A model generated the notes under the pieces. The model did not search any database. It worked only from the letters and a program-made list of their open reading frames with translations, and had not been told where the DNA came from. Positions 4,341-57,545 of a DNA stretch of 64,000 nt are shown here, one piece after another; position 1 is the stretch's first letter; each line of letters begins with the position of its first letter. Position numbers and translations under genes: made by a program. The DNA lies in NCBI GenBank assembly GCA_039799225.1, contig JBDLTF010000005.1, positions 2,884 through 66,883 of the forward strand, in the 5' to 3' direction. Source of the stretch: Candidatus Parcubacteria bacterium (GTDB lineage: Bacteria; Patescibacteriota; Minisyncoccia; Phycocordibacterales; PALSA-1337).

Positions 4341-5270
4341 CTACATCCACTTCTTCTTCCTGAACATATACCAGATCGCTCCGCTCACGGCGAGCATGAA
4401 GAAGAGAATTCCATACCATCCGACACCGTGCTCGATGAGTGGCACATTGAGCGCAGGGATAGTGAAGAGTGCGGCGATGAATGTCGCAGGCTGGAATATG
4501 AACGCAACCAACGTGAGGCGCTTCATGATGTCATTCTGCTTGGTATTGAGAAGAGAATCATTGGTCTCACGGAGATCAGCGAGCAATTCGCGGGAATTGG
4601 AAATGAGTTCGCGGATGCGATTGAAGTCGTCGCGAATATCATGCATGTAGACGCTGAATTCTTTGCCGAAGACGGAAGACTCATCATGAGAGACCATGTC
4701 AGACCAAATCTCTTCATGCACACGAGCAGTCTGCTTGAAATCGATAAGCTCACGAGAGAGATCGGAGAGGGCCTCCACCATATGTCGCTCATCACCACCG
4801 AAGACGCGTGTCTCAGCGCTCACGAGAGCATCTTTGATATTCTCGAGGTCTTCGCACATACCCGCGTAGATACGCTTGACCATATAGTAGAAGAGGTGAC
4901 CCGCATGCTCGATCTTCTCCTCTTTGTTGAGGATGGAGTTGGTTTCAAAAACTTTGCCGAAATACTCGAGCTGTTCGATAGTATCGAAACGAGAGGTGAT
5001 GAGGAAATTCTTGCCAATAACGAAATCAATCTCACGATCCTCGATCTCATATCCGTCACCTTTCTTGGCACGAACACGAACAGGGAGGGTGAGTACAACG
5101 AGGATATATTCCTTATAAAAATCTATCTTCGCAAGAGTAGAAGACTCCATAAGCTCTTCGCCGACGAGTGGATGGAGTCCATAGCGCTTGACCAGGCCAG
5201 AGATTTCTTCAGTATCAGGATTGGAGACGTCGAGCCAGACGAGACCTTTCGAAGCGTGATGGGTAATCAT
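4341..5270 (-). CDS. CorA-family divalent cation transporter-like protein (non-canonical, lacks GMN)
   Basis: 309 aa with a soluble N-domain and two C-terminal TM helices ending FRKKKWM, as in CorA. The GMN selectivity motif is replaced by TIP (FTIPALN). Confidence 0.55.
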   Translation of the reverse strand: MITHHASKGLVWLDVSNPDTEEISGLVKRYGLHPLVGEELMESSTLAKIDFYKEYILVVLTLPVRVRAKKGDGYEIEDREIDFVIGKNFLITSRFDTIEQLEYFGKVFETNSILNKEEKIEHAGHLFYYMVKRIYAGMCEDLENIKDALVSAETRVFGGDERHMVEALSDLSRELIDFKQTARVHEEIWSDMVSHDESSVFGKEFSVYMHDIRDDFNRIRELISNSRELLADLRETNDSLLNTKQNDIMKRLTLVAFIFQPATFIAALFTIPALNVPLIEHGVGWYGILFFMLAVSGAIWYMFRKKKWM

Positions 5271-5319
5271 GGATGATATTGTAGCAAATCATTTCCACTT
5301 ATGCGATAATGTTCGCACA

Positions 5320-6528
5320 ATGAATACTCAAGACCGAAAAGTAGTTATTTTCCTCGTCGCACTTCCCGCACTTATCTTCGCTTTCTTTATCGGTATGTAT
5401 GTCGGAGGAGGGAAGACCACTGGTGGCAGCGTACTCGGAGATAATACTGCCGCTGTTTCAGATGATGAGTTCGCACCATTCTGGAAAGCATGGCGTGAGC
5501 TCGATGACAAATATGTCGCCGCAGCAAGTACCACGCCTGAACAGCGCGTCTGGGGATCTATTCAAGGTCTCGCATCTTCATATGGCGACCCATACACCGT
5601 CTTCTTCCCTCCAGTAGAAGCAAAGATGTTCGAAGAAGAAATCTCGGGTAACTTCGAAGGTGTCGGTATGGAAATCGGCGTGAAGGACAAACAGCTTCAG
5701 GTCGTTTCTCCTATCAAGAATAGCCCTGCCGAGCGTGCAGGCGTCAAAACAGGCGACCTCATTCTCAAGATTGGTGATAAGAGCACTATGGATATGTCGA
5801 CTGATGCCGCAGTGAAACTCATTCGCGGCGCGAAGGGAACTCCTGTTGTGATCACCTTCCTCCCGAAGGGAAGTTCCAAGCCTGTCGAACGCACTATCAT
5901 CCGCGATATTATCGATATACCTACTCTAGATACTGAGAGGAAAGAGGGTGGTATCTTCGTCATCCGTCTCTATAGCTTCACCGCAAATTCCGCCAATCTC
6001 TTCAGGAATGCACTCCGCGAATTTGTACTTTCTGGCGACAAGAAAATCATCCTCGATCTTCGCGGCAATCCAGGCGGCTACCTCGATGCATCGTGGGATA
6101 TGGCTTCATGGTTCCTCCCTGCAGGCAAGACTGTGGTCACTGAGGACTTCGGAGGTAATGCAGAACCTAAGGTCTATCGCAGTAAGGGATATGATATCTT
6201 CAGCAGCAACCTCAAGATGATTATCCTCGTCGATGGTGGCTCAGCATCAGCATCAGAGATTCTCGCAGGTGCACTCAAGGAAAATGGTGTGGCCAAGCTC
6301 CTCGGAACCAAGACTTTCGGAAAGGGATCCGTTCAGCAGCTCATCTCCATCACCCCAGACACCTCTCTCAAGGTTACTATCGCTCGCTGGCTCACTCCAG
6401 CCGGACACAACCTCTCACACGATGGTCTCGAACCTGACTACAAGGTCGAACCTACCGAGAAGGACATTACAGACAAGAATGATGTTCAAATGTCCAAGGC
6501 AGTTGAAATATTGAACGCAGCACAGTAG
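5320..6528 (+). CDS. ctpA: carboxyl-terminal processing protease (S41 family, PDZ-containing)
   Basis: TM anchor, PDZ segment GVKTGDLILKIGDK, S41 motifs LRGNPGGY and DGGSASASEILAGAL. Start moved to Met-18 (MNTQDRK) to avoid a divergent overlap with the upstream gene. Confidence 0.8.
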   Translation: MNTQDRKVVIFLVALPALIFAFFIGMYVGGGKTTGGSVLGDNTAAVSDDEFAPFWKAWRELDDKYVAAASTTPEQRVWGSIQGLASSYGDPYTVFFPPVEAKMFEEEISGNFEGVGMEIGVKDKQLQVVSPIKNSPAERAGVKTGDLILKIGDKSTMDMSTDAAVKLIRGAKGTPVVITFLPKGSSKPVERTIIRDIIDIPTLDTERKEGGIFVIRLYSFTANSANLFRNALREFVLSGDKKIILDLRGNPGGYLDASWDMASWFLPAGKTVVTEDFGGNAEPKVYRSKGYDIFSSNLKMIILVDGGSASASEILAGALKENGVAKLLGTKTFGKGSVQQLISITPDTSLKVTIARWLTPAGHNLSHDGLEPDYKVEPTEKDITDKNDVQMSKAVEILNAAQ

Positions 6529-6551
6529 TATAGGCCAATAACCCAAAATCC

Positions 6552-6995
6552 ATGAAAATCATCCTTTTGAAAGACATCTTGAAACTCGGCAGGAAATATG
6601 AGGTCAAAACTGTCAGCGATGGATATGCCATCAACATGCTCATCCCACAGAAGCAGGCTGTCTCCGCAACTCCAGACGCTCTCAAGCGCCTCGAAACAGA
6701 GCGTGCCAAGGTAGAAGGCGAGCGCAAGATCCAGGAAGACCTCCTCGTCAAGAATATTGAAGGTCTCAAGAACATCACTCTCAAGATTGTCGGTAAGGCA
6801 AATGAGAAGGGTCACCTCTTCGCAGGACTCCACAAGGAAGCTATCGCAGCTGAAATCGAGAAGCAGACCCGCCTCCAGATCGATCCTTCATTCATTGAGC
6901 TCGCACATCCTCTCAAGGAAGTCGGTGAGCACACTATTGATATCAAGGCTGCAGGAAAGGCAGCTAAGTTGAAGATTGTTATCGAGAAGGCATAA
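6552..6995 (+). CDS. rplI: 50S ribosomal protein L9
   Basis: MKIILLKDILKLGRKYEVKTVSDGYAINMLIPQKQA is a canonical L9 N-terminus. 147 aa. Confidence 0.9.
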   Translation: MKIILLKDILKLGRKYEVKTVSDGYAINMLIPQKQAVSATPDALKRLETERAKVEGERKIQEDLLVKNIEGLKNITLKIVGKANEKGHLFAGLHKEAIAAEIEKQTRLQIDPSFIELAHPLKEVGEHTIDIKAAGKAAKLKIVIEKA

Positions 6996-7015
6996 CCTCC
7001 ACTTTAAGTAGTAAA

Positions 7016-7045
7016 CAAAAAAGAGGCTTCGAAGCCTCTTTTTTG
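7016..7045. terminator. bidirectional rho-independent terminator between rplI and rpmA
   Basis: AAAAAAGAGGCTTCGAAGCCTCTTTTTTG. Perfect 9-bp stem with T/A tracts on both sides. Confidence 0.75.
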
Positions 7046-7061
7046 ATGTCCCTAGAAGGAC

Positions 7062-7334
7062 TTATTTGACGTGAACGATGTTCTTCCTGACGATATCGTT
7101 GTTGAATGAGGTCTTGCGCTTGGTTCCGTATGAGACGACACCATCCTTGAGAGCAAAGAGAGTGTGATCCTTACCAGTACCGACATTGGTACCTGGGAGG
7201 GTAGAGGTTCCGCGCTGGCGGAGGATAATCTGACCAACGGTGATTTTCTGGCCATGGTTGATCTTAACTCCAAGATATTTTGGATTTGAATCTCGACCGT
7301 TTTTTGTCTGACCGGCGGCTTTCTTATGTGCCAT
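7062..7334 (-). CDS. rpmA: 50S ribosomal protein L27
   Basis: [24 protein letters not shown] is a canonical L27. 90 aa. Confidence 0.9.
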
Positions 7335-7665
7335 AGTAGTGGGGGATTGCGATTAATTTAGTCACGACAATATAACATATACCCTGTAAAATTACAAGAA
7401 AAGAGGCATTATAGGGGCATTGGGGGCAATTGACCAGCTACGAGCCCCCTCAAATACCCCTATTTTGACCCCCTATCGGTATCCAGAACGGCCTCAGACC
7501 CAAACCTGTCAAGACATTCTACGGGTGAATCGAGCCATGAATAAGGCTATATTTAGAGCCGTATTATAGTGATTGAATTGATCAGTACCGATAATATGGC
7601 TCTACATAAGGGTATTTGAGGTGTAAAATATGGCTCAACAGAGCCATATTACAGCATCTAGCCCC

Positions 7666-7694
7666 TTGACTTATAAGCCTATAGGTGCTATACT
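7666..7694 (+). promoter_or_regulatory. sigma70-like promoter TTGACT-N17-TATACT
   Basis: Near-consensus -35 and -10 with a 17-nt spacer, 32 nt upstream of the ATG at 7726. Confidence 0.5.
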
Positions 7695-7725
7695 TGTTAG
7701 GTAAAGCGAATAGGTAACCTCATGG

Positions 7726-8217
7726 TTGCTCAGTTCGTTTTTTTTATTGAATATGCTTGAACTTACAACTGGTGTGATGTTCCTCATGTCGTCCCTCTAC
7801 GGTTCTGGACAAAGCGATAATCACATCGACACGATTAACGCGAACTCAGACACTATAGAGGTCACGACGACCGAAGCTCGCTCTCTGACAAGCTCAAAGC
7901 AGATGCAATCATATCTCCAGCAGGAGTACTTTGACACGCCGATCCTCATTGAGGTCGCGCGCTGTGAATCGGAGTACCGCCAGTTCGACTCGAACGGCAA
8001 AGTTATCCGCGGACGTGTTGTCGCGGACGATATCGGCGTGATGCAGATCAACGAATACTTCCATGGCGAGACCGCCAAGAAGATGGGACTCAACATCTAT
8101 ACCGCCGAAGGGAACGTCGCTTATGCGAAGTATCTCTACAGTAAGTATGGTTTGAAGCCTTGGTCAGCCTCAGCTCCGTGTTGGAACAAGAATGGAGACA
8201 TCGCTTTGGCTAAGTAA
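7726..8217 (+). CDS. secreted lytic transglycosylase-like (SLT/lysozyme-like domain) protein
   Basis: N-terminal hydrophobic segment. C-terminal GVMQINEYFHG...AYAKYLY resembles the SLT catalytic region. Confidence 0.55.
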   Translation: MLSSFFLLNMLELTTGVMFLMSSLYGSGQSDNHIDTINANSDTIEVTTTEARSLTSSKQMQSYLQQEYFDTPILIEVARCESEYRQFDSNGKVIRGRVVADDIGVMQINEYFHGETAKKMGLNIYTAEGNVAYAKYLYSKYGLKPWSASAPCWNKNGDIALAK

Positions 8218-8235
8218 ACGATTAAAAGAGAAGTA

Positions 8236-8274
8236 AAAGTCCTCACAAAATAAATTGTGAGGACTTTTACGTTT
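8236..8274 (+). terminator. rho-independent terminator
   Basis: AAAAGTCCTCACAAAATAAATTGTGAGGACTTTTACGTTT. 10-bp stem plus T-run. Confidence 0.7.
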
Positions 8275-8442
8275 CAAGAATTTGTTTAACGTTACCTATA
8301 GGGAAGAGAAGTGCGGAAATTTAATCCGGCTTGAATCTTGGCTGGATTCTTCCGCTCGATACCATGTCGCACAATATACATTAATTCACTTGCCTAGGGT
8401 AAAAATAAAACCCTTTGAAGGGCTTGGCTGCTGTTATTCTGC

Positions 8443-8772
8443 TTATATTGGTATCGCCTCTGGTTGCGGGATAACCGGCGCGCTTGATTGTAAACTATCT
8501 GGTTCCCCATTCTTTATCTTCTTGAGCGCGTCTATAGCTGGCTCCCAGATCAAATTTAAGAAAATATCTTTCCAGAGATATGTAACTGGCTTCTTGAGAT
8601 AATTATTCCAGACATTAATCATAACTTCTTGAGTATATGAGAAATTATCCCTTCCTGCGGGTGAATTCACGATATCGCGGATATTGAAACCGAAATAGCT
8701 CAATATAAGGAGCGCAACGACGATAAGAATAATCGTACGGATGAAACCTTGATTGTGGAGTGTTTTTTTCAT
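8443..8772 (-). CDS. hypothetical small membrane protein
   Basis: MKKTLHNQGFIRTIILIVVALLILSYFGF TM helix. Preferred over the overlapping plus-strand ORF 8282-8602. Confidence 0.4.
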   Translation of the reverse strand: MKKTLHNQGFIRTIILIVVALLILSYFGFNIRDIVNSPAGRDNFSYTQEVMINVWNNYLKKPVTYLWKDIFLNLIWEPAIDALKKIKNGEPDSLQSSAPVIPQPEAIPI

Positions 8773-8833
8773 ACCTCTATTGTACCGCACTCTATATTAG
8801 GCCTACAAGGTTACTTACAGGCCTATAACGTGA

Positions 8834-10153
8834 CTAAAGGTACGACAATGGGTTCAAGTACGCATTGAGAGGCGCGTACGGGATCATAATTCCGGGACAT
8901 GATCTGCTGTTTGCAACTTGGAAGCCGTCGGTTGCATACACGCCAAAGTGGAGATGCGGACCGGTGGTGAAGCCTGTGTTGCCGCTGTAGCCGACGATTT
9001 GACCTCGAGCTATAGTATCGCCAATCTTAACGGTGTTGAGTGACATATGAGCGTATAAGGTCGTCAAACCATTTGGATGCTCGACGGATACCCAATTTCC
9101 GTATCCACACTTGATTCGAGATGCCGTAGCGAAGGTATGACTGACAACTCCACCCGCAGCAGATTTTATCGGCGTTCCAACAGAAGCTCTCAAATCAATT
9201 CCATTATGTTCGCCACTAGATCCTTTGTAGACTTGCGGATTTGCAGTCGAAAACGTCGTGTTTCCGAAATACTGCGTGATAGACGGTGCATCTATCGGCC
9301 ACGACAAAACTCCTGAACCAACTCGGGGGATACTCGAAGAATCAACAGAAGTAAGAGCTTGTTCAAGCAGTGCCACTTCCCTCTCAAATGATTCTTTCAA
9401 AGCCTGACGCTCCTTCAACACTCTCTGGTATTGTGACTCACTTTGCTTCGTTTCCTTGAGCAGATAATTTTGTTCAGCGACTGTTTCTAAAACAACTTTC
9501 TTCTGATCATTCAACTGCTTGCTCAACGTAACAAGTTCAGTCTTAGCCTTCTCGGTCGCTTTCTTATTGGTCTCAAGGTTGGTCTTGGCACTCTGAAGGC
9601 TGGCAATACGGTCTATAAGCGCATTCTGGACTGCAGCAATACTGTCCATCGAGTTCCATGCGGTTGAGAGTGATTTCTCGCCAAGAAGAAGCTCAGGCAA
9701 TGATTTGTCGCCTATTTCATTCACGCTCTGATATGAGCGCGTGATGATACGACGGTCTTCAGTAATAGTCTCTTCTTTGTCTGATATCTGCCCACCAAGC
9801 TGTTTGATGAGTAGATTCTTCTCGGCAATTTTATTCTCAGTGACTTTGATATCGGCCTCGAGCTTCTTCTGAGTAAGCTGAAGCGACTTGATGGTCGCAG
9901 ATAGTGACGAGACTTGCGTACCGATCTCATTGAGCTGTTTCTGATAACTGGCGATTTCTTTTTCAAGTGCCTGAATATCATTCGCGCGCTGATCTATCTT
10001 CGTTTGCAATTCATCAGCTGATTGTGCGAATACTGATGAGAAAAATACTGTGCACACACAGACGAGTACAAGAATAGAAATGAAAAAAGCGAAACGGTAG
10101 GGGACTCCCCTATTCTTGTTGCCCTGCGTAGTTGTGTTCGGAAGATGTCGCAT
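8834..10153 (-). CDS. M23 family metallopeptidase with N-terminal coiled coil (EnvC/NlpD-like)
   Basis: Signal/TM segment, long coiled-coil region, C-terminal LytM/M23 motifs GIDLRASVGTPI and GNTGFTTGPHLHF. Confidence 0.8.
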   Translation of the reverse strand: MRHLPNTTTQGNKNRGVPYRFAFFISILVLVCVCTVFFSSVFAQSADELQTKIDQRANDIQALEKEIASYQKQLNEIGTQVSSLSATIKSLQLTQKKLEADIKVTENKIAEKNLLIKQLGGQISDKEETITEDRRIITRSYQSVNEIGDKSLPELLLGEKSLSTAWNSMDSIAAVQNALIDRIASLQSAKTNLETNKKATEKAKTELVTLSKQLNDQKKVVLETVAEQNYLLKETKQSESQYQRVLKERQALKESFEREVALLEQALTSVDSSSIPRVGSGVLSWPIDAPSITQYFGNTTFSTANPQVYKGSSGEHNGIDLRASVGTPIKSAAGGVVSHTFATASRIKCGYGNWVSVEHPNGLTTLYAHMSLNTVKIGDTIARGQIVGYSGNTGFTTGPHLHFGVYATDGFQVANSRSCPGIMIPYAPLNAYLNPLSYL

Positions 10154-10177
10154 GATTCATGGTCGTCCGTCCTACAA

Positions 10178-11563
10178 CTATCCGAGTTTCTTAAGAGCAC
10201 TGTCGACTCTCTTAATAGCCTCTTCCCTGCCGAGCACCGCTGCGGAAATGAAAGGGTCTGGGGATTTATCTTGTCCGGTGAGTGACATGCGGAGTGGCCA
10301 GAGGACATCGCCTTTACCATTGGCTTCTACGTACGGCCAGAGTGCATTTTTGACAGTGTCAGCGGTAAATTCCTTGGTGGAAATTCCTGAAAGAATCTCT
10401 GAAACTTTGGTGAGATGAGCAGAAGCGGCCTTTGCATCAGGATTTTTCTTCCAGAGAAGTGTATCTGTCGCATACTCCTTGATCATGTGTACAAACGCAA
10501 GCTCACCATCGGCTGCAAGCATAGTGGAGACTTCTGCGAATGTAGTGATCTTGTCGCGCAAAATAGGTACAAGTCTCTTGAATGTATCACTCTTAGGTAC
10601 GACCCATTCTGGCAAGAATGGAATAGTGTACTCAATAAAATCAGCATCGGAAAGTTTCAAAACATACTGACGATTGAACCACTTGAGTTTCTCACCATCG
10701 AAGACTGCGCCTGACTTCTGCACGCGATCAAGAGAGAACTCCTTCACGATTTCGTCTACTGACAATACTTCCCTGTCGTCTGACGGATGCCAACCGAGGA
10801 GTGAAAGATAGTTGACGATGGCTTCGCGGATAAATCCCTTGTCGCGATATTCACTGATAGGAACGGCACCCTTCCTCTTGGAAAGCTTTGATTTATCGGC
10901 AGAAAGAAGGAGTGGAATATGCGCATAGTGAGGTATAGGAGCGCCTATAGCCTCAAATATGAGAATCTGGCGCGGAGTATTGGAGATATGATCCTCACCA
11001 CGAATGATGTGAGTGATACCCATCTCGTGATCGTCGATGACCACAACGAGATGGAACACAGGCTCGTCTTCACTCTTGGCGATGACGAAGTCACCGAGCT
11101 CAGTGGTATCAAACTCGATGCGTCCGCGAATGATATCATCGAAGACAACTTTCTTGTTGGGATTCTTGAAACGGATAACGCTCGAGCGGAGCTGACTAGG
11201 TTCTATCTGTCTGCCCTCCTTGGCGGCATTTTTGATAGTCTCTTGATTCTTGGCAGTCTCGTCGGAAACGTAGGCGTGACCAGATGCAATCATCTGGTGA
11301 ATATATGTCTTGTACATCTCGGTACGATCAGACTGACGATAAAATTCATCATATTCAAGACCGAGCCACTTCAAACTCTCGACGATGTTTTCCTCATATT
11401 CCTTCTTGGAGCGCTCCTTGTCAGTATCTTCAATACGGAGGATGAATTTACCCTTGTTCTGGCGCGCATATATCCACGAAAAAAGCGCCGTACGGTATGA
11501 TCCAGCATGGAAATAGCCTGTCGGCGACGGGGCAAAGCGGGTTACTACTTTTTGGGTAGACAT
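10178..11563 (-). CDS. gltX: glutamyl-tRNA synthetase
   Basis: VVTRFAPSPTGYFHAG (HIGH-type) and KLSKRKG (KMSKS). Confidence 0.9.
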   Translation of the reverse strand: MSTQKVVTRFAPSPTGYFHAGSYRTALFSWIYARQNKGKFILRIEDTDKERSKKEYEENIVESLKWLGLEYDEFYRQSDRTEMYKTYIHQMIASGHAYVSDETAKNQETIKNAAKEGRQIEPSQLRSSVIRFKNPNKKVVFDDIIRGRIEFDTTELGDFVIAKSEDEPVFHLVVVIDDHEMGITHIIRGEDHISNTPRQILIFEAIGAPIPHYAHIPLLLSADKSKLSKRKGAVPISEYRDKGFIREAIVNYLSLLGWHPSDDREVLSVDEIVKEFSLDRVQKSGAVFDGEKLKWFNRQYVLKLSDADFIEYTIPFLPEWVVPKSDTFKRLVPILRDKITTFAEVSTMLAADGELAFVHMIKEYATDTLLWKKNPDAKAASAHLTKVSEILSGISTKEFTADTVKNALWPYVEANGKGDVLWPLRMSLTGQDKSPDPFISAAVLGREEAIKRVDSALKKLG

Positions 11564-11758
11564 GAGGGTAGTATAGCAGAAATCAGCGGTTTATAAACAC
11601 AAAAGCCCCCGAAAGGGCTCTTGTATTGTCTGTTGTGCGGATCACCAGTAAAAGTGACTCGCGAGCCCAGAATGGATTACCCATTCCAGTCCACCAGTCG
11701 AGATTTAATCGACATAGAAAGTCTATCAACTTGTCAGAGCACCGTCAAATAAGTTCAC

Positions 11759-11826
11759 TGGACTCAAGGGGAATCGAACCCCTAAATCTATTTTGACAAG
11801 AATAGATTCGGAGCCATCCTGAGCCC
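11759..11826 (-). tRNA. tRNA-like element (perfect T-arm + acceptor; anticodon/D region non-canonical), possibly an unusual tRNA or a tRNA-derived fragment
   Basis: Minus-strand GGGCTCA...AGGGGTTCGATTCCCCTTGAGTCCA. Acceptor 7/7 paired with one G-U. Canonical T-loop TTCGATT. The middle folds as an 8-bp stem with an 8-nt loop (AATCTATT CTTGTCAA AATAGATT), not a standard anticodon arm. Total length is only 68 nt. Confidence 0.3.
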
Positions 11827-11848
11827 TCCGCGGAATTACTTCCGCGCT

Positions 11849-11900
11849 AAAATCATACACAATCAAAATGAAGGAATTGTGATGAAGTGATAGAGAAACT
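11849..11900 (-). promoter_or_regulatory. conserved upstream motif, copy 2 (minus strand GTTTCTCTATCACTTCATCACAATTCCTTCATT followed by TTGATTGTGTATGAT)
   Basis: Sits just upstream, in the sense orientation, of the tRNA-like element and the gltX leader. 23/27 identical to copy 1 over the core. Confidence 0.5.
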
Positions 11901-11908
11901 ATGATGAT

Positions 11909-12883
11909 CTATTTGATCACCGAATTCTTGACCGTCCCATGCTCGAGAAAATCAATTACATTCTGCGCAACCACCTTCGCCATCTCGTTACGGGCAGACT
12001 CACGTGCAGAGGCTATATGAGGCGTTAGGATGACATTAGGGAGCTTGGCGAGGCCACGGGCAAGCTTGGGTTCAAATTCGAAAACATCGAGGCCAGCGCC
12101 CGCAATAGTGCCGTCTTGTAGAGCTTTGACTAGAGCATTTTCATCAACAACAGGACCACGAGCGGTATTAATCAAGAATGCCGTCTGCTTCATCATCTTA
12201 AGACGAAGTTCATTCATGAGATGATGAGTCGAATCGAGAAGAGGTACGTGGAGACTCACAACATCAGACTGAACAAGAACTTCCTCAATCGTCTCACAGC
12301 GACGTGCGTGGTAATCATGATCGAGTGTCTCATTACGATTTACATCATAATAGAAAATTTCCATATCGAAGCCGTGATAACAATGATGCGCAACCCTCTC
12401 CCCTATTCTGCCTGCGCCAATGAGGCCAAGCTTCTTACCCTTGAGATCAGTACCGACCAGATTCATCGGTGACCAGCCTTTGTATTTACCAGCGCGGGTG
12501 AAGCGATCTGCTTCGACCATACGAGTAGTGAGTCCGAGCATAAGTGCGAGTGTATGCTCAGCAATAGTGTGCGCATAATTCCCCGGAGCATTAGCCGCCT
12601 GAATACCGCGCTTCTTTGCTTCTACAGTATCGATATTGTCAAACCCAGTTGCATAGTTCGCGTAGAATTTAACGCTTGGCACTGCTTCAAACAAAGTTGC
12701 ATCAACCTTGTCGGTCAATAATGAGATAACTGCATCATACGGCTTCTTCTGAAGTGCTTTGATGATTTCTCGCTGACTTGGAACACAATCATGAGGATAT
12801 ACATCAACATCGTATCCTCTCTTCTTGAGCATTTCGATAGCAATATCTGGAATGACGCGTGTGATATAGACTGATTTGGACAT
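11909..12883 (-). CDS. D-isomer-specific 2-hydroxyacid dehydrogenase (glycerate/hydroxypyruvate reductase family)
   Basis: NAD-binding GLIGAGRIGERVA. Catalytic-domain architecture typical of this family. 324 aa. Confidence 0.8.
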   Translation of the reverse strand: MSKSVYITRVIPDIAIEMLKKRGYDVDVYPHDCVPSQREIIKALQKKPYDAVISLLTDKVDATLFEAVPSVKFYANYATGFDNIDTVEAKKRGIQAANAPGNYAHTIAEHTLALMLGLTTRMVEADRFTRAGKYKGWSPMNLVGTDLKGKKLGLIGAGRIGERVAHHCYHGFDMEIFYYDVNRNETLDHDYHARRCETIEEVLVQSDVVSLHVPLLDSTHHLMNELRLKMMKQTAFLINTARGPVVDENALVKALQDGTIAGAGLDVFEFEPKLARGLAKLPNVILTPHIASARESARNEMAKVVAQNVIDFLEHGTVKNSVIK

Positions 12884-12996
12884 ATTACTAGTGATTATAC
12901 TACCAAAATGACATTTATGAATTTAGTTGAAATTATAATGCTATTTTAGCACGATTTTCTATTTACTCTTGAAAGCTAATCAATAATAAAAAATAT

Positions 12997-13899
12997 TTAA
13001 GAACCATTTAATTCTATTATTGCATTTAACTCACTAATAAAGTCATAAATAAGATCATTTGAAATAATTACGCCCAGACTTTCATAATCATCACCACTTA
13101 CCATAGATGGTATACCGATCCTGCAACCATACTGGTCAACCGCCAAACCTCCGGAATTACCGTGACTAATTTTTGCGGAAGTTATTATTAAACCATCTTT
13201 TGCTAATAAACTACTTACAATTCCATCAGTTATAGTAAGTGCATATCCACCACTGATTGCTGGATATCCGTAGATTCTCACAGGCTCACCGAGCTTCACA
13301 TTCTCATTCCTACAGTATTTATTACTATCATAAGCCGGGAAATTCTTAGGATAAACTCCGTATGTCTTACCTTCATCCATATCATAATAAACATCATCTA
13401 TCTGTACAAAAGCGAGGTCGTATTGTTCACTCAAATCAGGGATTACAATTGGATATGCGGTGTATATTTCATCAGGTGCACCACTAGAAGGATCGGGTAG
13501 TATAACAAGGCAACTTGAAGTATCTTCTGCCCCTTTAGGAATTATATGAGCATTAGTTAGAACAAGTCCGTCCTCCGTCAAAATAGTACCTGAGCCGCCA
13601 GAGGTATCTTCTTCTTTTTCTCCAGTACAGTAAATATTCACAACTGCTGATGCTATATCTAGGTTTGTTTGATCACTTGCGGGTTTTATTCTCTTACTAT
13701 TATAAAAAAATACTAGTCCAACAATTACAATCAACAAAAAGATACCGCACGCAACAACTACTCTACTTTTAGTAAAATATTTTTTTGTTTTATTGAGAGC
13801 TTGAGTCTGATCTTCTCGAAGTATTTGTACCTCTGCACCGCATGACGTGCAAAATTTTATATTTTCTTTTATTTCATTCCCACATGATGTACAAAACAT
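12997..13899 (-). CDS. double-zinc-ribbon / TM / trypsin-like serine protease (S1-like) protein
   Basis: N-terminal FCTSCGN...FCTSCGA. One TM. His (TNAHI), Asp (DLAFVQID) and Ser (GNSGG) catalytic triad motifs. Confidence 0.7.
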   Translation of the reverse strand: MFCTSCGNEIKENIKFCTSCGAEVQILREDQTQALNKTKKYFTKSRVVVACGIFLLIVIVGLVFFYNSKRIKPASDQTNLDIASAVVNIYCTGEKEEDTSGGSGTILTEDGLVLTNAHIIPKGAEDTSSCLVILPDPSSGAPDEIYTAYPIVIPDLSEQYDLAFVQIDDVYYDMDEGKTYGVYPKNFPAYDSNKYCRNENVKLGEPVRIYGYPAISGGYALTITDGIVSSLLAKDGLIITSAKISHGNSGGLAVDQYGCRIGIPSMVSGDDYESLGVIISNDLIYDFISELNAIIELNGS

Positions 13900-13904
13900 A
13901 AAAA

Positions 13905-14372
13905 TTACTTAGCTGCGACAGAAATGCCGCAATTACCACAGAATTTTAGCTCTTTTATGGCTTGCGTACCACAACTTGAGCAATAACTTATCCGAATATC
14001 TTTATCCTTGGGAAAAAATTCAGTCTCAACAACTTCAGATTTAACTGCATCCTGTGAACCACTACTAAGTAAACTTATTCGGATATGATATTCTTCGTTA
14101 GTGATTTTGCCATCTACTAGGAGCTGATTTGTTTCTGCAAGAGGCTCCATTTGAGTAAACTGATCTCCATTCAATGTTACGCCGTATTTACAGACCGGAC
14201 AAGACAAGTAATGCTCTATTTTGTAAGGAAAAACTGGAATAAAAAATAAAGTAAACCAGGTCTTTATTTTGGTCAAAACCCAGTAGTGCTCGTTGTGGCA
14301 GTGGCTGCAAAGTTTTTTGAAAACTGGACCAAAGTTTTTAATTGTTTGAAAGCCCCAGCCAAAAATAATCAT
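13905..14372 (-). CDS. zinc-ribbon-containing small protein
   Basis: CSHCHNEH...CPVCKYG and C-terminal YCSSCG...FCGNCG. One hydrophobic segment. Confidence 0.5.
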   Translation of the reverse strand: MIIFGWGFQTIKNFGPVFKKLCSHCHNEHYWVLTKIKTWFTLFFIPVFPYKIEHYLSCPVCKYGVTLNGDQFTQMEPLAETNQLLVDGKITNEEYHIRISLLSSGSQDAVKSEVVETEFFPKDKDIRISYCSSCGTQAIKELKFCGNCGISVAAK

Positions 14373-14377
14373 GATTT

Positions 14378-15274
14378 TTAATTTTCAGCTAAATAATCAT
14401 AAACTTCCTGTGGCACCTCTACCCCATTCGCAATCGCTTTTCGTAAATAAATTTGAGCATTTATAGGATCATCATTTCTTGCATATGACAATCCAAGCCA
14501 ATAAGCAATGTATGTATCCGCATCAAGAGTTATGCTGGAAAATATTGAGATGGCTTGAGGATAATTTTCATTGAAATAGTAAGCCATACCGAGGTTTTGC
14601 TTGGCAATCTGCAAATCAGTCAATTGGACTGCACGTTGAGCATATTTCAATGCTTTCGGGTAATCAACATACTGAGGAGCATTATCTTCTAAGTCCATGT
14701 AAAAAAGTGCGAGCGAGTTATTAATTTGAAAATCATTAGGATCTTTTGAATAAGCCTTATTAAAGGCAAGCAAAGCTGCATTTGGCTTACTCTCAAGCAT
14801 TGCTATTTCTCCCGCAATCAAATAGTAATCGAAAGAATCACTCAGTGCTATTATAAGAGCTTCTTTGAAGGTGCTGATTGCCAAATCATTTTGTCCCTCA
14901 CCTGAATAGACGTAGGCAAGATTTTTAAGAGTGTTTACCTTATTTTCATTTGAGACCGCATCATGTGATGCTTGCTGGAGTTGATTTAAAGCTTGCTGAC
15001 TATTTCCAGAGTCATAGTTTGAAACTGCACTATTATTTTTCTCTATAACAGCATCATCCATAGATGCATATACAATCCATCCAACGATAGCAACAATAAA
15101 AAGCAGTTTAAATACCCTACCTATATTTCTCGATGCCTTAAATTTTGTTTTTCTAAAATTTGGGATACTTTGTTTTTGAGATAAACTGGTTTTAACTCCT
15201 AAAAGTTCTTTACCACAATTAGTACAGAACTTATTCAAACTATCTGATTTTGTGCCACAATTTTCGCAAAACAT
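14378..15274 (-). CDS. double-zinc-ribbon / TM / TPR-repeat protein
   Basis: N-terminal FCENCG...FCTNCG. One TM (FKLLFIVAIVGWIVYASM). TPR-like repeats in the C-terminal half. Confidence 0.65.
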   Translation of the reverse strand: MFCENCGTKSDSLNKFCTNCGKELLGVKTSLSQKQSIPNFRKTKFKASRNIGRVFKLLFIVAIVGWIVYASMDDAVIEKNNSAVSNYDSGNSQQALNQLQQASHDAVSNENKVNTLKNLAYVYSGEGQNDLAISTFKEALIIALSDSFDYYLIAGEIAMLESKPNAALLAFNKAYSKDPNDFQINNSLALFYMDLEDNAPQYVDYPKALKYAQRAVQLTDLQIAKQNLGMAYYFNENYPQAISIFSSITLDADTYIAYWLGLSYARNDDPINAQIYLRKAIANGVEVPQEVYDYLAEN

Positions 15275-15283
15275 ATTTGTATT

Positions 15284-15769
15284 TTATTTTAGGACGTTAT
15301 CAGGTAACTTATTCAGCTCAAATAAACTAATGATAACTGAAATAAAAAGTGCAATCTCTCCAAGACTTGATATGATTTCGACCTTCTGAAAAGCTATAAC
15401 AATGATAGTAAGTACTAAAATTATAGTGGCTATCCTGTGATCTGCCTTTGCTAACCTAATAAGCCCCCATATTCCGAATACAATGATCATTAGACCACCT
15501 ATGAATCCTACTGTACCTAGAAATACCTCGGACACATCACCAGCAAATGGTAAAAAGAGAAGACATATCGTTACTATCCACGGCCAAACAATCAACTTAC
15601 AGAGCAATTTATTTGATATTTTTCTGTTGGGTATCTTTATCTTCTCGTTAGATATTGCTGTATTAGCGATTTTATGACTTGAACTGTTTCCTATGGCCTT
15701 TCCACACCTAGCACAAAACATTGCACTATTTTTTATTTCATTTCCACATTCCCTGCAAAATTTGTTCAT
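15284..15769 (-). CDS. double-zinc-ribbon N-terminal multi-pass membrane protein
   Basis: N-terminal FCRECG...FCARCG followed by 3-4 predicted TM helices. Confidence 0.55.
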   Translation of the reverse strand: MNKFCRECGNEIKNSAMFCARCGKAIGNSSSHKIANTAISNEKIKIPNRKISNKLLCKLIVWPWIVTICLLFLPFAGDVSEVFLGTVGFIGGLMIIVFGIWGLIRLAKADHRIATIILVLTIIVIAFQKVEIISSLGEIALFISVIISLFELNKLPDNVLK

Positions 15770-15803
15770 AAATTATTTATAAATAATAGACACTTTATTT
15801 GAG

Positions 15804-15846
15804 GTATTTGACTTAAACATAATAATACAATAACTAAGTCAAATAC
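15804..15846. promoter_or_regulatory. perfect 12-bp inverted repeat GTATTTGACTTA-N19-TAAGTCAAATAC (candidate operator) upstream of the zinc-ribbon gene
   Basis: Exact palindrome arms 35-75 nt upstream of the start at 15769. Contains a TTGACT -35-like hexamer. Confidence 0.4.
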
Positions 15847-15977
15847 ACTATAATCCAGACTTTGGGTAATGGTGGATAATTAAATTTATTAATAAACCAT
15901 CATAGCTCGTCAAAAACTGCCCTAAGACCAAAAGAGCCGCCTTGCGGCGACTCTTCTGGTCGAACAAATCTGAAATA

Positions 15978-16481
15978 CTATCCCTTGATGCCGGCACCGA
16001 CTGCAGCTGCAGCACGGAAGAGCTTCATGATGATGTTGCCCTTGGAATCCTTGATTGGAAGATCCTTAGAAGCATCAAACTTCATGTCACCATCATCTGA
16101 GTGGAGCATAGCGTAATAGATACCTCCTTCAACAGTCGGCTTGGTGAGAGTGATCTTGCCTGTGTTGATACCCTTTGCGAAGTACATTGTTCCGATAACA
16201 TCTCCTGGCTGACCATTCTTGTCAGCGTGGATAGCAACGAATCCGCCATTGGCGAGCTGGACTGATGAAAGGAATACAACGTTACCAGGATACTGGTCGG
16301 ACATAACAACACGGTTGATCTCGGTGGCTGCACCTCCGCTGGTATCACCCAAGGCGGTAGTGTCCATCGTGTCAGATCCCTTGTTTCCGAAGACCATGAT
16401 ACCGATGACGATAAGGGCGATGATGACGATAGCTGTGACGATCCACTGCCATGCCTTGATGCCGCTCTGTTCTGGATTCAT
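15978..16481 (-). CDS. hypothetical membrane-anchored protein
   Basis: N-terminal TM (WQWIVTAIVIIALIVIGIMVF) and a roughly 130-aa extracytoplasmic domain. No family recognised. Confidence 0.5.
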   Translation of the reverse strand: MNPEQSGIKAWQWIVTAIVIIALIVIGIMVFGNKGSDTMDTTALGDTSGGAATEINRVVMSDQYPGNVVFLSSVQLANGGFVAIHADKNGQPGDVIGTMYFAKGINTGKITLTKPTVEGGIYYAMLHSDDGDMKFDASKDLPIKDSKGNIIMKLFRAAAAVGAGIKG

Positions 16482-17781: not shown

Positions 17782-18447
17782 TTATCCTAATGTCCATTGA
17801 ATACTAGTAACTTCAAATATATCCCTTTTCAGCTCGCCAATCATTTTGAAAGTATATCTCTGATACTGACTATTTGTTATAACTTTTATAAATTCAGCGA
17901 AAGTATCGTTTTGGTAGCGAGTATTTTGTACGACTGTCGGCATCTTAACTTTCATCGTTTCCATACCTGTTGTCAGCATAAATGTACGAGCATCTATATC
18001 TATACTCTTGATGTCTTTGACAACAACACCAATTTCCTGAATTCCAACCTTATCAGCGCACCACACATAAGGAAGATCAGATGATACTGAATTTGGCCCA
18101 ATTATCATACAAAGGAGATGCCAATTCTCATATGCGTACTCTACACGGTCACCGAAACGAGAAGGTTGAGTCACTTCTCCTATAGTAGCCAATATACGAT
18201 TGGCGACGATTTTCTGCGCAGATGACACCGGAAGCTTGTACCCTGGAATATTTTTGAAACCAGGCTGTGCTTCTATTTTGTAATCAGAATTTGCCTCCTG
18301 TTGAAGATTTTCCAAAATTGATTTTGCTTGTGGACCAGCTGATGATCTTTCATTCTTACTATAAAGATATACACCACCACCTACTACGAGCACTGCAATT
18401 ATTGCTAAAAGAAGTGGTGTAACAAAACCTTTTTGTGGATTTTTCAT
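17782..18447 (-). CDS. hypothetical secreted/membrane-anchored protein (AT-rich gene inserted between ftsW and murG)
   Basis: N-terminal TM/signal (FVTPLLLAIIAVLVVGGGVYLY). About 35% GC against about 50% in the flanking genes. Confidence 0.5.
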   Translation of the reverse strand: MKNPQKGFVTPLLLAIIAVLVVGGGVYLYSKNERSSAGPQAKSILENLQQEANSDYKIEAQPGFKNIPGYKLPVSSAQKIVANRILATIGEVTQPSRFGDRVEYAYENWHLLCMIIGPNSVSSDLPYVWCADKVGIQEIGVVVKDIKSIDIDARTFMLTTGMETMKVKMPTVVQNTRYQNDTFAEFIKVITNSQYQRYTFKMIGELKRDIFEVTSIQWTLG

Positions 18448-20864: not shown

Positions 20865-20908
20865 GTCCGCATATTATAGCGCATCTTGCTTCCTATCAGA
20901 TATTTCGA

Positions 20909-21151
20909 TTATTTCTCAATAACACAGTCGAATTCTGACACAGTGGTACTGCCTATGAAAAAATAATCTTTAATTAAGATAAACTCACGAATATCTTGGC
21001 ACGCCTTCTCATTCAACGCTTTCTGGATGCGATATTCTCTCCGAGTAATACTATCCGCATATGATATAGATGCGGTAAATACGACTATGACCGAAGCGAT
21101 GCATCCCATAGCAAGCAAGATAATAGCCGTTACAGCCATGAAGCCACTCAT
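20909..21151 (-). CDS. hypothetical small membrane protein (possible minor pseudopilin lacking Glu5)
   Basis: Hydrophobic GFMAVTAIILLAMGCIASVIVVF segment after a short N-region. Start is uncertain: the table start at 21193 overlaps the prepilin ORF. Confidence 0.35.
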   Translation of the reverse strand: MSGFMAVTAIILLAMGCIASVIVVFTASISYADSITRREYRIQKALNEKACQDIREFILIKDYFFIGSTTVSEFDCVIEK

Positions 21152-21161
21152 TGAATTGTAG

Positions 21162-21332
21162 CTAATTCTGTTGCGCATAGTTGATATCATCAAGAAGCGA
21201 AGCGTCCTTCATTTGAATTGAGTATAGAAAATTAATCGTCCCCGCGATTAAGAACGATAGCAGCACGGTATATATCACAACCTCGATTAAGATCATTCCT
21301 TGTGTAGGATTTTTCTTTGAAGAATAAATCAT
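21162..21332 (-). CDS. small prepilin-like protein (56 aa; class III signal G|MILIEV with Glu+5), not in the supplied ORF table
   Basis: Minus-strand ORF MIYSSKKNPTQG|MILIEVVIYTVLLSFLIAG... Its ATG overlaps the stop of the upstream pilin-like gene (ATGA). Confidence 0.45.
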   Translation of the reverse strand: MIYSSKKNPTQGMILIEVVIYTVLLSFLIAGTINFLYSIQMKDASLLDDINYAQQN

Positions 21333-55932: not shown

Positions 55933-56161
55933 GCGGCTAGTGTACAGGCAGAAACCATTGGTGACAAGCTAAAATCCCTCTCCCCACTCGACCCACTTTG
56001 GGTAAATACTGCCTGCGACGAATACGCACGGCAATACGACGATTGCGAGGATGACCCACAATGAGAAATGGATGATTTTCTTGAAAAACTCAATCATAGC
56101 GAAAAAGTATCTTATCCTACTGGAGAAATGTTCGCAAGGTTAGCTTTCTCTTCTTTATTTG

Positions 56162-56232
56162 TCGGGCTGCCGAGAATCGAACTCGGACCTCACACTCCCG
56201 AAGCGTGTATACTACCACTATACTACAGCCCG
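56162..56232 (-). tRNA. tRNA-Pro (anticodon CGG)
   Basis: 71-nt cloverleaf CGGGCTG TA GTAT AGTGGTA GTAT A CACGC TTCGGGA GTGTG AGGT CCGAG TTCGATT CTCGG CAGCCCG A. Confidence 0.7.
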
Positions 56233-56421: not shown

Positions 56422-56643
56422 ATGAAAGCACTTCATACTATCGCGGTCATCCTCGTCGTTATCGGAGGTATCAACTGGGGTCTCGTCGGCGTTGCCAATT
56501 TTAACCTTGTCGCCCTCCTCCCAGCTATGATTGCTAAGATCGTCTACATTCTCGTAGGCGTCTCAGCTATCCTCGTGGTTGTTACCCACAAGAAGTCATG
56601 CAAGGATTGCGCTGTTCCAGCTTCTTCTGCACCGATGATGTAA
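56422..56643 (+). CDS. DUF378-family small membrane protein
   Basis: GGINWGLVGVANFNLVA motif typical of DUF378. Two TM. 73 aa. Terminator follows. Confidence 0.65.
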   Translation: MKALHTIAVILVVIGGINWGLVGVANFNLVALLPAMIAKIVYILVGVSAILVVVTHKKSCKDCAVPASSAPMM

Positions 56644-56662
56644 TATCTGGTTTCCCAGAAAT

Positions 56663-56689
56663 AAAAAACCGCTCATAAGCGGTTTTTTA
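56663..56689. terminator. bidirectional rho-independent terminator
   Basis: AAAAAACCGCTCATAAGCGGTTTTTTAT. Confidence 0.8.
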
Positions 56690-56855
56690 TTGTGCGGATG
56701 GCTACTTAGCCTCGCATCCACAATCGCACTTCGTGTTTGGGTGTGAATGTCCGCATGCGGAACATACTGGTGCATCTGCCATAATCGTAAAAGAGTTAGG
56801 GCTGATAAAGCGACCTTTCGTATATAATTGTAGCACTAAGCATTAAATGGTACAT

Positions 56856-57170
56856 CTACCAGAAGAAAAAATAATAAATTACAGGTAATACAAGAAAAAT
56901 AAGCAATATTGATTTTGCTATGATCTGTCGAACCCTTTCGCCAATATCAAGAATTTTAGAACTTTTAAAAATACTAATGATTGTAGCGATAAGACCAGAT
57001 ATATACAGATAACCGAATACGTACAAAATAACATACAGTATGTAATGTGGAGAGAATCCAAATGCACCACCTCCATATCTTGAATAATTAGTCTCTGCGG
57101 CAAATAAAGAAAACAATATCACCACTATGAGTATTACGCTCCAGACGTTTACGATCGTGGTTTTTTTCAT
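56856..57170 (-). CDS. hypothetical small multi-pass membrane protein (AT-rich)
   Basis: Start moved to MKKTTIVNVW. The longer table ORF runs through tRNA-Ala and the tandem repeats. Confidence 0.4.
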   Translation of the reverse strand: MKKTTIVNVWSVILIVVILFSLFAAETNYSRYGGGAFGFSPHYILYVILYVFGYLYISGLIATIISIFKSSKILDIGERVRQIIAKSILLIFLVLPVIYYFFFW

Positions 57171-57234
57171 AATAAAAATATTACCATGTAAATAATCAGT
57201 GTAAAAGGGTTCACAACTGAACATCACACATATT

Positions 57235-57265
57235 AAAAAACCGCCCATATCAGGCGGTTTTTTTG
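57235..57265. terminator. rho-independent terminator downstream of tRNA-Ala
   Basis: AAAAAACCGCCCATATCAGGCGGTTTTTTTG. Confidence 0.8.
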
Positions 57266-57271
57266 TATGTG

Positions 57272-57344
57272 TGGACCCGAGAGGAATTGAACCTCCGACC
57301 TTTGCTTTGCAAAAGCACTGCTCTACCAACTGAGCTACGGGCCC
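57272..57344 (-). tRNA. tRNA-Ala (anticodon UGC) with G3:U70 identity pair
   Basis: GGGCCCG TA GCTC AGTTGGTA GAGC A GTGCT TTTGCAA AGCAA AGGTC GGAGG TTCAATT CCTCT CGGGTCC A. Confidence 0.85.
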
Positions 57345-57545
57345 AAGTGAGGGACGAACGGACAAACTTGTTTGGACTTTCGGTCCGAACGCAGGGCCGG
57401 TATGAAATACGGGCCCAAGTGAGGGACTAAAGAACAAACTCGTTTGGACTTTTGGTCCGAACGCCGGGCCGGTATGAAATACGGGCCCAAGTGATGAACG
57501 AAAGATACTCTTACTTGGACTATTTTCGAACCCAAGTAATATACA
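57337..57545. repeat. tandem direct repeats of about 73 bp (two good copies plus one degenerate) in the 5' flank of tRNA-Ala, each starting with the first 9 nt of the tRNA
   Basis: ACGGGCCCAAGTGAGGGAC.AA.GAACAAAC.TGTTTGGACTTT.GGTCCGAACGC.GGGCCGGTATGAAAT, repeated from 57337 and from 57409. Third copy diverged. Confidence 0.7.

Follow-up and report, generated by a model that had tools for sequence, protein, structure and literature searches.

The subject of this analysis is an AT-rich island in a 64-kb window (the whole analyzed stretch of 64,000 nucleotides, from contig JBDLTF010000005.1) of a genome of the Candidate Phyla Radiation (CPR). The host is a CPR bacterium of the Candidatus Taylorbacteria type, and the island encodes four proteins, here called g4, g3, g2 and g1 in the order of their genes. 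We found that the island is a horizontally acquired insertion and that three of its genes belong to a conserved operon, g3-g2-g1 (hereafter, the cassette), which occurs in distant CPR lineages and is repeatedly linked there to large serine recombinases. In the interpretation that we favor, with a probability of roughly 55%, a recent insertion of about 3.03 kb has brought in a mobile g3-g2-g1 operon, which would encode a complex of a protease and a tetratricopeptide repeat (TPR) adaptor carried as cargo of an integrative element. The transfer event and the conservation of the operon are clear, and the sequences of its products suggest a function in envelope proteolysis.

Insertion site and boundaries

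Scanning one genome per species with MurG of the window yielded 80 loci, whose MurG proteins are between 94% and 59% identical to the query. Patescibacteria account for all 80, in many cases under the label Candidatus Taylorbacteria or Paceibacterota. Ten local proteins were compared with these loci by tblastn. The order FtsW-MurG-DUF7282 followed by GltX is kept in 80 of the 80 loci, the 2-hydroxyacid dehydrogenase is limited to about ten close relatives, and g1-g4 are found in none (0/80). Homologs of other cassette genes, of accessory genes or of recombinases were likewise not detected in the same 80 MurG loci.

Two relatives, L003 (MurG 94% identical) and L004 (90%), provide empty sites, in which the stop codon of the DUF7282 gene and the start codon of the dehydrogenase gene are separated by 148 and 75 bp, respectively. 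DNA homology to both empty sites ends at about position 15929 and restarts at about 12900, with clean breaks on both sides; the alignment delimits an inserted block of ~3.03 kb (12902-15933, minus strand; guanine plus cytosine (GC) content ~35%). Its upstream edge adjoins the intrinsic terminator of the host DUF7282 gene (15936-15948, minus strand), which was identified by a terminator scan and is kept in L004. At the downstream edge, a promoter scan revealed a promoter-like TTCATA-16-TATAAT of the host 2-hydroxyacid dehydrogenase gene (12894-12921, minus strand), and its TATAAT together with the start-codon region of the dehydrogenase gene aligns with L003 and L004. Both junctions carry a direct repeat of 7 bp (12902-12908 and 15927-15933), which reads ACCAAAA on the plus strand. 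The first-pass annotation of this DNA had proposed that envelope genes were acquired horizontally here; their absence from the locus in 80 of 80 relatives, the clean breakpoints and the deviant GC content confirm the horizontal origin of the insertion, which is located between the DUF7282 terminator and the dehydrogenase promoter.

Such a pattern might in principle also arise if an AT-rich block had been wrongly joined to the contig during assembly or binning. That the cassette resides elsewhere on many short contigs, and that one cluster of g1 homologs carries mixed labels of metagenome-assembled genomes (MAGs), would fit an artifact of this kind. However, an independent Logan assembly of 19.9 kb has the same junctions as the 69.6-kb NCBI contig, and the flanking proteins are 100% identical. 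Because the contig and both junctions recur identically in a second, independent assembly, a chimera is unlikely and was rejected as a candidate, and any assembly or binning artifact appears extremely improbable.

Genomic islands are a frequent feature of Patescibacteria (PMC12455944). Across loci L003-L082, the MurG-DUF7282-GltX interval contains unrelated extra DNA of 0.7-8.5 kb in other genomes, with 8.5 kb in L053 and further examples in L039, L077, L006 and L026, which marks the interval as a hot spot for insertions throughout Taylorbacteria.

Layout and composition of the island

All four genes lie on the minus strand: g4 (15284-15769, 161 residues), g3 (14378-15274, 298 residues), g2 (13905-14372, 155 residues) and g1 (12997-13899, 300 residues), separated by gaps of 5-9 bp. 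The listing of open reading frames (ORFs) thereby agrees with the gene content and coordinates given previously. The island is flanked by the 2-hydroxyacid dehydrogenase gene (11909-12883) on one side and the DUF7282 gene (15978-16481) on the other; farther out are gltX, murG and ftsW. Across 12884-15977 the GC content is 34.5%, compared with 47.4% +/- 2.0% in other segments of 3.1 kb (z = -6.5). The compositional drop noticed at first sight is thus real, but the earlier figure of about 30% was too low, values of 21-31% being confined to the intergenic parts of the island. Codon usage and oligonucleotide statistics, which had been proposed as a check, deviate in the same region: GC at third codon positions is 23-34% in the island genes versus 44-58% in adjacent genes, and the tetranucleotide distance between the island and the remaining window has a z-score of 9.8. 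Outside the island, the 64-kb window has no further ORF with a terminal zinc ribbon.

Upstream of g4 there is a perfect 12-bp inverted repeat, GTATTTGACTTA-N19-TAAGTCAAATAC (15804-15846, not assigned to a strand), with arms at 15835-15846 and 15804-15815 and a spacer of 19 nt. An inverted repeat of at least this length arose in one of 2000 Markov simulations of the same intergenic region. The upstream regions of all other cassette loci were searched, and none carries this 12-bp inverted repeat, making the candidate operator or hairpin specific to the island. Distinct from it is an imperfect 20-nt palindrome, ATGGTGGATAATTAAATTTA / TAAATTTATTAATAAACCAT (80% complementary, 15869-15900), located just within the upstream junction.

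The operon in other genomes

In a set of 5.8 billion proteins we found 630 homologs of g1, the nearest of which is just 85% identical. Among these, the best 120 share 58-85% identity with g1, have a length of about 290 residues and mostly bear the same annotation as g1 itself, a zinc ribbon and a Trypsin_2 domain. They belong to Paceibacterota, Minisyncoccia, Parcubacteria and Levybacteria. Since g1 retains 58-85% identity across these lineages, whereas MurG drops to 59% within Taylorbacteria alone, the spread of identities suggests that g1, and probably the cassette as a whole, moves laterally among CPR lineages.

The genomic contexts of five g1 homologs share the same arrangement of a ribbon-TPR protein, a small ribbon protein and a ribbon-protease in one orientation (5/5), and in three of the five (L083, L086 and L090) a Zn_ribbon_15 gene, corresponding to g2, precedes the protease gene. 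The small ribbon protein, which we call gS, has 130-139 residues and is usually encoded between g3 and g2. A metagenome scan with the g1 profile added 80 loci. In a census of 28 non-redundant loci in which a close g1 is preceded by 2.6 kb or more of sequence, g3 is present upstream of g1 in 26, gS in 25 and g2 in 20, with g3 and g2 together in 20 of the 28. The g3 protein of the window is 48-78% identical to its counterparts in the cassettes of L083, L084, L086, L090 and L093. Compared with the nearest cassette, that of L083 (75-83% DNA identity), the window copy lacks the gS gene, and the same order without gS is seen in L103 and L104. Similar to the island, the cassette has a GC content of 35-37% in all but one of five loci, the exception being L083 with 41%. 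Taken together, sequence comparison shows that g3-(gS)-g2-g1 is a conserved operon across CPR lineages, apparently maintained by purifying selection, since its proteins are still 50-85% identical in distant lineages. As to the earlier expectation that all four genes might travel together, it holds for g3, g2 and g1 (20 of 28 loci), but g4 stands apart.

A short gene for an XRE-type helix-turn-helix (HTH) protein is frequently found just upstream of the cassette, for example in L104 (1519-2219) and in L090 (7379-7600). The next gene in L104 encodes a membrane protein that resembles DUF805 and ends in a ribbon, a label given from reading the sequence. The window cassette lacks an XRE-type regulator and has in its place the 12-bp inverted repeat alone.

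The proteins of the island

Three of the four proteins, g1, g3 and g4, begin with the pattern FCxxCG-x9/10-FCxxCG, which forms a single C4 zinc ribbon with two knuckles. These ribbons span the whole 23-residue Zn_Ribbon_1 model of Pfam, whereas of the 45-residue DZR model they cover only positions 1-22 or 1-23, below the cut-off. Membership in DZR was rejected, because it needs two C4 ribbons with eight cysteines and one is present; the initial description of a 'double zinc ribbon' was therefore mistaken. The ribbons of the paralogs do align with each other, so that their conservation, which had been left to be checked, is established. Proteins of Gram-positive bacteria of the TcaA, Zn_Ribbon_1 and Zn_ribbon_15 types have a similar design, in which an N-terminal C4 ribbon and a single transmembrane (TM) helix are combined with a variable outside domain. 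The match to TcaA itself is weak, restricted to the N-terminus (22.5 bits versus a cut-off of 550) and devoid of ectodomain homology; unlike in those proteins, several ribbon-TM proteins are here grouped in a single operon that is conserved and mobile.

The anchor gene of the cassette, g1 (12997-13899, minus strand), encodes an N-terminal zinc ribbon, a TM helix (residues 47-65) and a protease domain related to HtrA/DegS, which is predicted to be extracytoplasmic. Pfam assigns Zn_Ribbon_1 and Trypsin_2 (E 9e-17). The catalytic residues H118, D161 and S249, the last within GNSGG, are unchanged across 37 g1 homologs, bearing out the intact triad read from the sequence at the outset, and four ectodomain cysteines are likewise invariant. 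A profile search of the PDB with g1 returned HtrA, DegS and Deg proteases exclusively (E about 1e-10). The AlphaFold2 model, with a mean predicted local distance difference test (pLDDT) score of 81.6, has DegS-deltaPDZ and HtrA1 as its top Foldseek matches (E 3e-14, target TM-score 0.75-0.83, 25-28% identity). No PDZ domain was detected in g1 by Pfam, and the protein ends about 50 residues past the catalytic serine. With HtrA/DegS (MEROPS S1C) it thus has in common the trypsin fold, the His-Asp-Ser triad, GNSGG, an N-terminal anchor and a catalytic domain predicted to be extracytoplasmic; it differs in the missing PDZ domain, the extra cytoplasmic C4 ribbon and the four conserved ectodomain cysteines. 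At 25-28% identity it also stays below every HtrA/DegS cut-off of NCBIfam, the best match being degP_htrA_DO with 46.3 bits against a cut-off of 416. Both g1 and g3 have a stretch rich in lysine and arginine (K/R) ahead of their single TM helix. From the positive-inside rule and the ectodomain cysteines of g1 we infer that the protease and TPR domains are extracytoplasmic and the ribbons cytoplasmic. The model of g1 is accordingly that of a probable membrane-anchored HtrA/DegS-like enzyme without a PDZ domain, whose activity is a prediction.

The similarity to DegS raises the question of regulated proteolysis, in which g1 would act as a site-1 protease that frees a cytoplasmic ribbon fragment or lifts an anti-sigma-like block. 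The closest folds of g1 are indeed DegS protease domains, DegS is also TM-anchored at its N-terminus, a cytoplasmic ribbon is common to all partners, and an XRE-type HTH gene lies ahead of the cassette in several loci. However, the ribbons are generic Zn_Ribbon_1 modules of about 25 residues, the PDZ sensor that defines DegS is absent, and neither the island nor the cassette genes of five reference loci encode a sigma factor, a zinc-binding anti-sigma (ZAS) motif or a DNA-binding domain. In the island, the ORF listing and Pfam revealed no sigma or transcription factor, and neither the ZAS motif HxxxCxxC in the cytoplasmic domains nor zf-HC2 was found; a sigma70_r2 gene is present in one alone of the related loci listed (L093), on the opposite strand. 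A ZAS-type anti-sigma cassette was rejected as a candidate, there being no HxxxCxxC motif and no co-encoded sigma factor of the extracytoplasmic function type, and the anti-sigma-like role suggested previously finds no support in the island. Overall, we consider regulated proteolysis distinctly unlikely.

The second conserved member, g3 (14378-15274, minus strand), consists of an N-terminal zinc ribbon, a TM helix (residues 54-72) and a TPR domain that is predicted to lie outside the cytoplasm; Pfam reports the ribbon together with TPR_2, TPR_1 and TPR_12. Six K/R residues precede the TM helix and one follows it, which indicates a topology with the N-terminus inside.

The third, g2 (13905-14372, minus strand), is a Zn_ribbon_15 protein (PF17032, E 1e-14) with an additional C4 ribbon at its C-terminus. 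Along the chain, a CxxC pair, a hydrophobic beta-hairpin, a second CxxC pair and two helices are followed by a variable acidic linker and the C-terminal ribbon. We found 164 homologs; the best 120 are 50-72% identical and of about equal length, with residues 1-95 nearly invariant. The AlphaFold2 model has pLDDT values of 79-86 over residues 11-100 and features two long beta-hairpins with a hydrophobic tip, WFTLFFIPVFPY, and both CxxC pairs at the base. No TM segment of 19 residues is present in g2, and a Foldseek search of the PDB with its model gave nothing below E 0.2. The two helices presumably resemble a SHOCT motif, although Pfam made no SHOCT call.

The first slot of the cassette is variable. 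In the window it is occupied by g4 (15284-15769, minus strand), an N-terminal C4 zinc ribbon followed by three or four TM helices; Pfam identifies Zn_Ribbon_1 only, and hydrophobic segments span residues 55-73, 82-100 and 115-133. There is one homolog (52% identity) in the 5.8 billion proteins and one full-length representative in a set of 1.84 billion, and this lone homolog adjoins DsbA/VKOR genes, not a cassette. Other cassettes have in the first slot an unrelated ribbon protein or a DUF805-ribbon protein. When g4 and its upstream DNA were compared with other cassettes and with the contigs of the homolog, similarity was weak and confined to the coding region. Therefore, the island is a mosaic, composed of the conserved g3-g2-g1 block and a variable ribbon-membrane gene that has upstream DNA of its own.

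This mosaic character brings up the idea that the genes have no joint function and are either a chance cluster of lineage-specific ribbon-membrane genes or the decaying leftovers of a degraded element. The orphan status of g4, the missing gS and the lack of a recombinase agree with it. Yet all four ORFs are intact and spaced by 5-9 bp as is typical of an operon, the catalytic and zinc-binding residues are preserved, the arrangement g3-g2-g1 without gS recurs in L103 and L104, and homologs 50-85% identical exist in distant CPR lineages. A lack of joint function is therefore, in our opinion, very doubtful.

Link to mobile elements

When neighboring genes were clustered, 10 of 34 non-redundant loci proved to have a large serine recombinase within 6 kb of the cassette, showing that the two are linked, which the first-pass annotation had not noted. 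Six of these recombinases were checked with Pfam and have Resolvase together with Recombinase and/or Zn_ribbon_recom; two more were already annotated in this way, and four further short contigs contain recombinase matches. In two cases, elements could be delimited. In L086, an element of ~11 kb (5122-16416) splits a comM-type Mg-chelatase gene, and in L090, as well as in L154, an element of 10.6 kb (3241-13892 in L090) is placed between rpmG and miaA; each holds the cassette and a large serine recombinase. The elements of L086 and L090 have a GC content of ~35% versus 41-43% in their flanks and encode a helicase/primase-like AAA_25 or RepO-like protein, an XRE-type regulator and many ribbon-anchored membrane proteins. 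In L090 the cassette is part of an 11-gene operon. PHROGs identified no capsid or packaging genes in either element, the matches being restricted to replication-type and endolysin domains.

A scan of IMG/VR with g1 returned no relative, and the g1 profile has one match there at 28% identity; with the cassette essentially absent from IMG/VR, a viral origin was rejected. Among anti-phage defense systems in PADLOC, g2, g3 and g4 have no match and the protease domain of g1 weakly matches RT-Protease_XI (E 1.8e-10), so that a known defense system, supported by a weak match of the protease domain alone, was rejected as well.

One cluster of g1 homologs at 90% identity (that of protein P0085) includes MAGs labelled Massilibacteroides, Bacilli and Patescibacteria, on contigs that are all at most 8.5 kb long. 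These mixed labels point to mobile DNA that was binned wrongly, or perhaps to a broader range of hosts.

The island of the window resembles large-serine-recombinase islands, including those targeting comM, in its low GC content, its absence from relatives and its intergenic position. Unlike them, it lacks an integrase, replication genes and recognizable att sites and is flanked only by the 7-bp repeat. Elsewhere, the cassette is found inside 10-11-kb elements whose integrases combine Resolvase, Recombinase and Zn_ribbon_recom. Since integration and replication genes are absent, the window copy has the appearance of a fragment that was stranded or consists of cargo alone.

The composition of the elements admits another view, namely that the cassette, rather than being neutral cargo, is working envelope apparatus of the serine-recombinase elements themselves, serving exclusion of competing elements or phages, entry or transfer, or providing the membrane proteins of a capsid-less, vesicle-type element. 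Outside integration and replication, the coding capacity of the two resolved elements is devoted mostly to ribbon-anchored membrane proteins, of which the 11-gene operon of L090 is an example; the recombinase is often immediately next to the cassette (L142, L158); capsid and packaging genes were not detected; and many more ribbon-membrane proteins populate the neighborhoods. At the same time, most loci have no recombinase nearby, the cassette is nearly absent from IMG/VR, there is no match to known defense systems beyond the protease domain, and the window copy lacks element genes and, if maintained, would need a reason at the level of the host. We regard this view as unlikely, but the most serious of the alternatives. 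Its more specific form, in which the operon would be the envelope module of a so far undescribed class of ~10-11 kb capsid-less serine-recombinase elements that cross CPR classes and act at the cell surface, with the window copy domesticated or stranded, appears rather unlikely.

A model for the island and its cassette

Our preferred reading is that of a mobile operon delivering a protease-adaptor complex as cargo. A g3-g2-g1 operon circulating among CPR bacteria, often within small low-GC integrative elements with a large serine recombinase, would have entered the intergenic hot spot described above. The copy in the window would then represent the operon joined to an unrelated g4, without integration and replication genes. 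All four proteins are expected to hold a small C4 zinc ribbon at the cytoplasmic face, and g1 and g3 to cross the membrane once, with their C-terminal domains facing outside. In HtrA/DegS proteases, substrates are normally selected by the PDZ domain. For the PDZ-less g1, the TPR domain of g3 may serve instead as a substrate or adaptor module, responsible for recruitment or activation, and the two, tethered to the membrane as a complex, might cleave surface or envelope proteins or control their quality. A peripheral, membrane-dipping g2 and an integral membrane protein g4 would be additional partners, joined or regulated through the shared ribbons. The benefit could accrue to the host, as surface quality control or host-cell contact, or to the element, as exclusion or transfer. 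A role in surface remodelling or host interaction, as raised in the first-pass annotation, gains no support from the data and is not contradicted by them. Extracytoplasmic pairs of a TPR adaptor and a protease do exist, as exemplified by NlpI-Prc of E. coli and LbcA-CtpA of P. aeruginosa (PMC5686067, PMC11021448). Like these pairs, g3 and g1 would combine a TPR protein with a serine protease outside the cytoplasmic membrane, the pairing being proposed here on the grounds of synteny.

A number of observations weigh against this reading. The absence of the cassette in relatives refers to their 21-kb MurG loci rather than to whole genomes. The 7-bp repeat is the sole flanking repeat, and its length cannot separate target duplication from microhomology or chance. 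No recombinase homolog is present in the 64-kb window, and 24 of the 34 cassette loci are without a recombinase within 6 kb. A scan of the minus strand 5' of g4 found no consensus promoter of the sigma-70 type; although the perfect inverted repeat itself was confirmed, the 'promoter region' to which the first-pass annotation had assigned it was an assumption. The first gene, g4, is a near-orphan outside the conserved gene set. The putative interaction between g1 and g3 is suggested by one line of evidence, conserved synteny. Finally, Prc and CtpA are C-terminal processing proteases of family S41 that bear PDZ domains and work with lipoprotein adaptors, whereas g1 is S1C-like and both g1 and g3 appear to be anchored by a ribbon-TM module.

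Other low-GC segments of the window

Between ftsW and murG, an ORF of 221 residues (17782-18447, minus strand) encodes a protein that is anchored to the membrane at its N-terminus and has no family match. Its GC content is 37.5%. None of the 80 relative loci has a homolog, and ftsW directly adjoins murG in most of them; the ORF resembles a small AT-rich insertion, the second in this gene cluster. Another low-GC patch (37%) occupies positions 56601-57300, between tRNA-Pro (56161-56232) and tRNA-Ala (57271-57344). The ORF found there (56856-57437) has a hydrophobic C-terminal part resembling a membrane protein and overruns the tRNA-Ala gene; the patch could be another small acquired segment. A third patch (39%, 20901-21300), between scpA and a 489-residue gene without assigned function, contains an ORF of 94 residues with one hydrophobic segment.

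Implications

The component domains all belong to known families. In the searchable literature we found no account of the operon or of its association with elements. CPR bacteria (Patescibacteria) combine tiny genomes with a life attached to other cells and are almost inaccessible to genetics. The island bears on what they display at their surface and on how they exchange genes. With 50-85% identity across distant CPR lineages and a repeated link to recombinases, the operon represents a traceable marker of gene flow within the radiation. It is also a defined candidate for surface proteolysis. Moreover, if the proposed interaction of g1 and g3 is true, the PDZ-less, ribbon-anchored protease and its co-anchored TPR partner would constitute a new architecture for an envelope protease-adaptor system.

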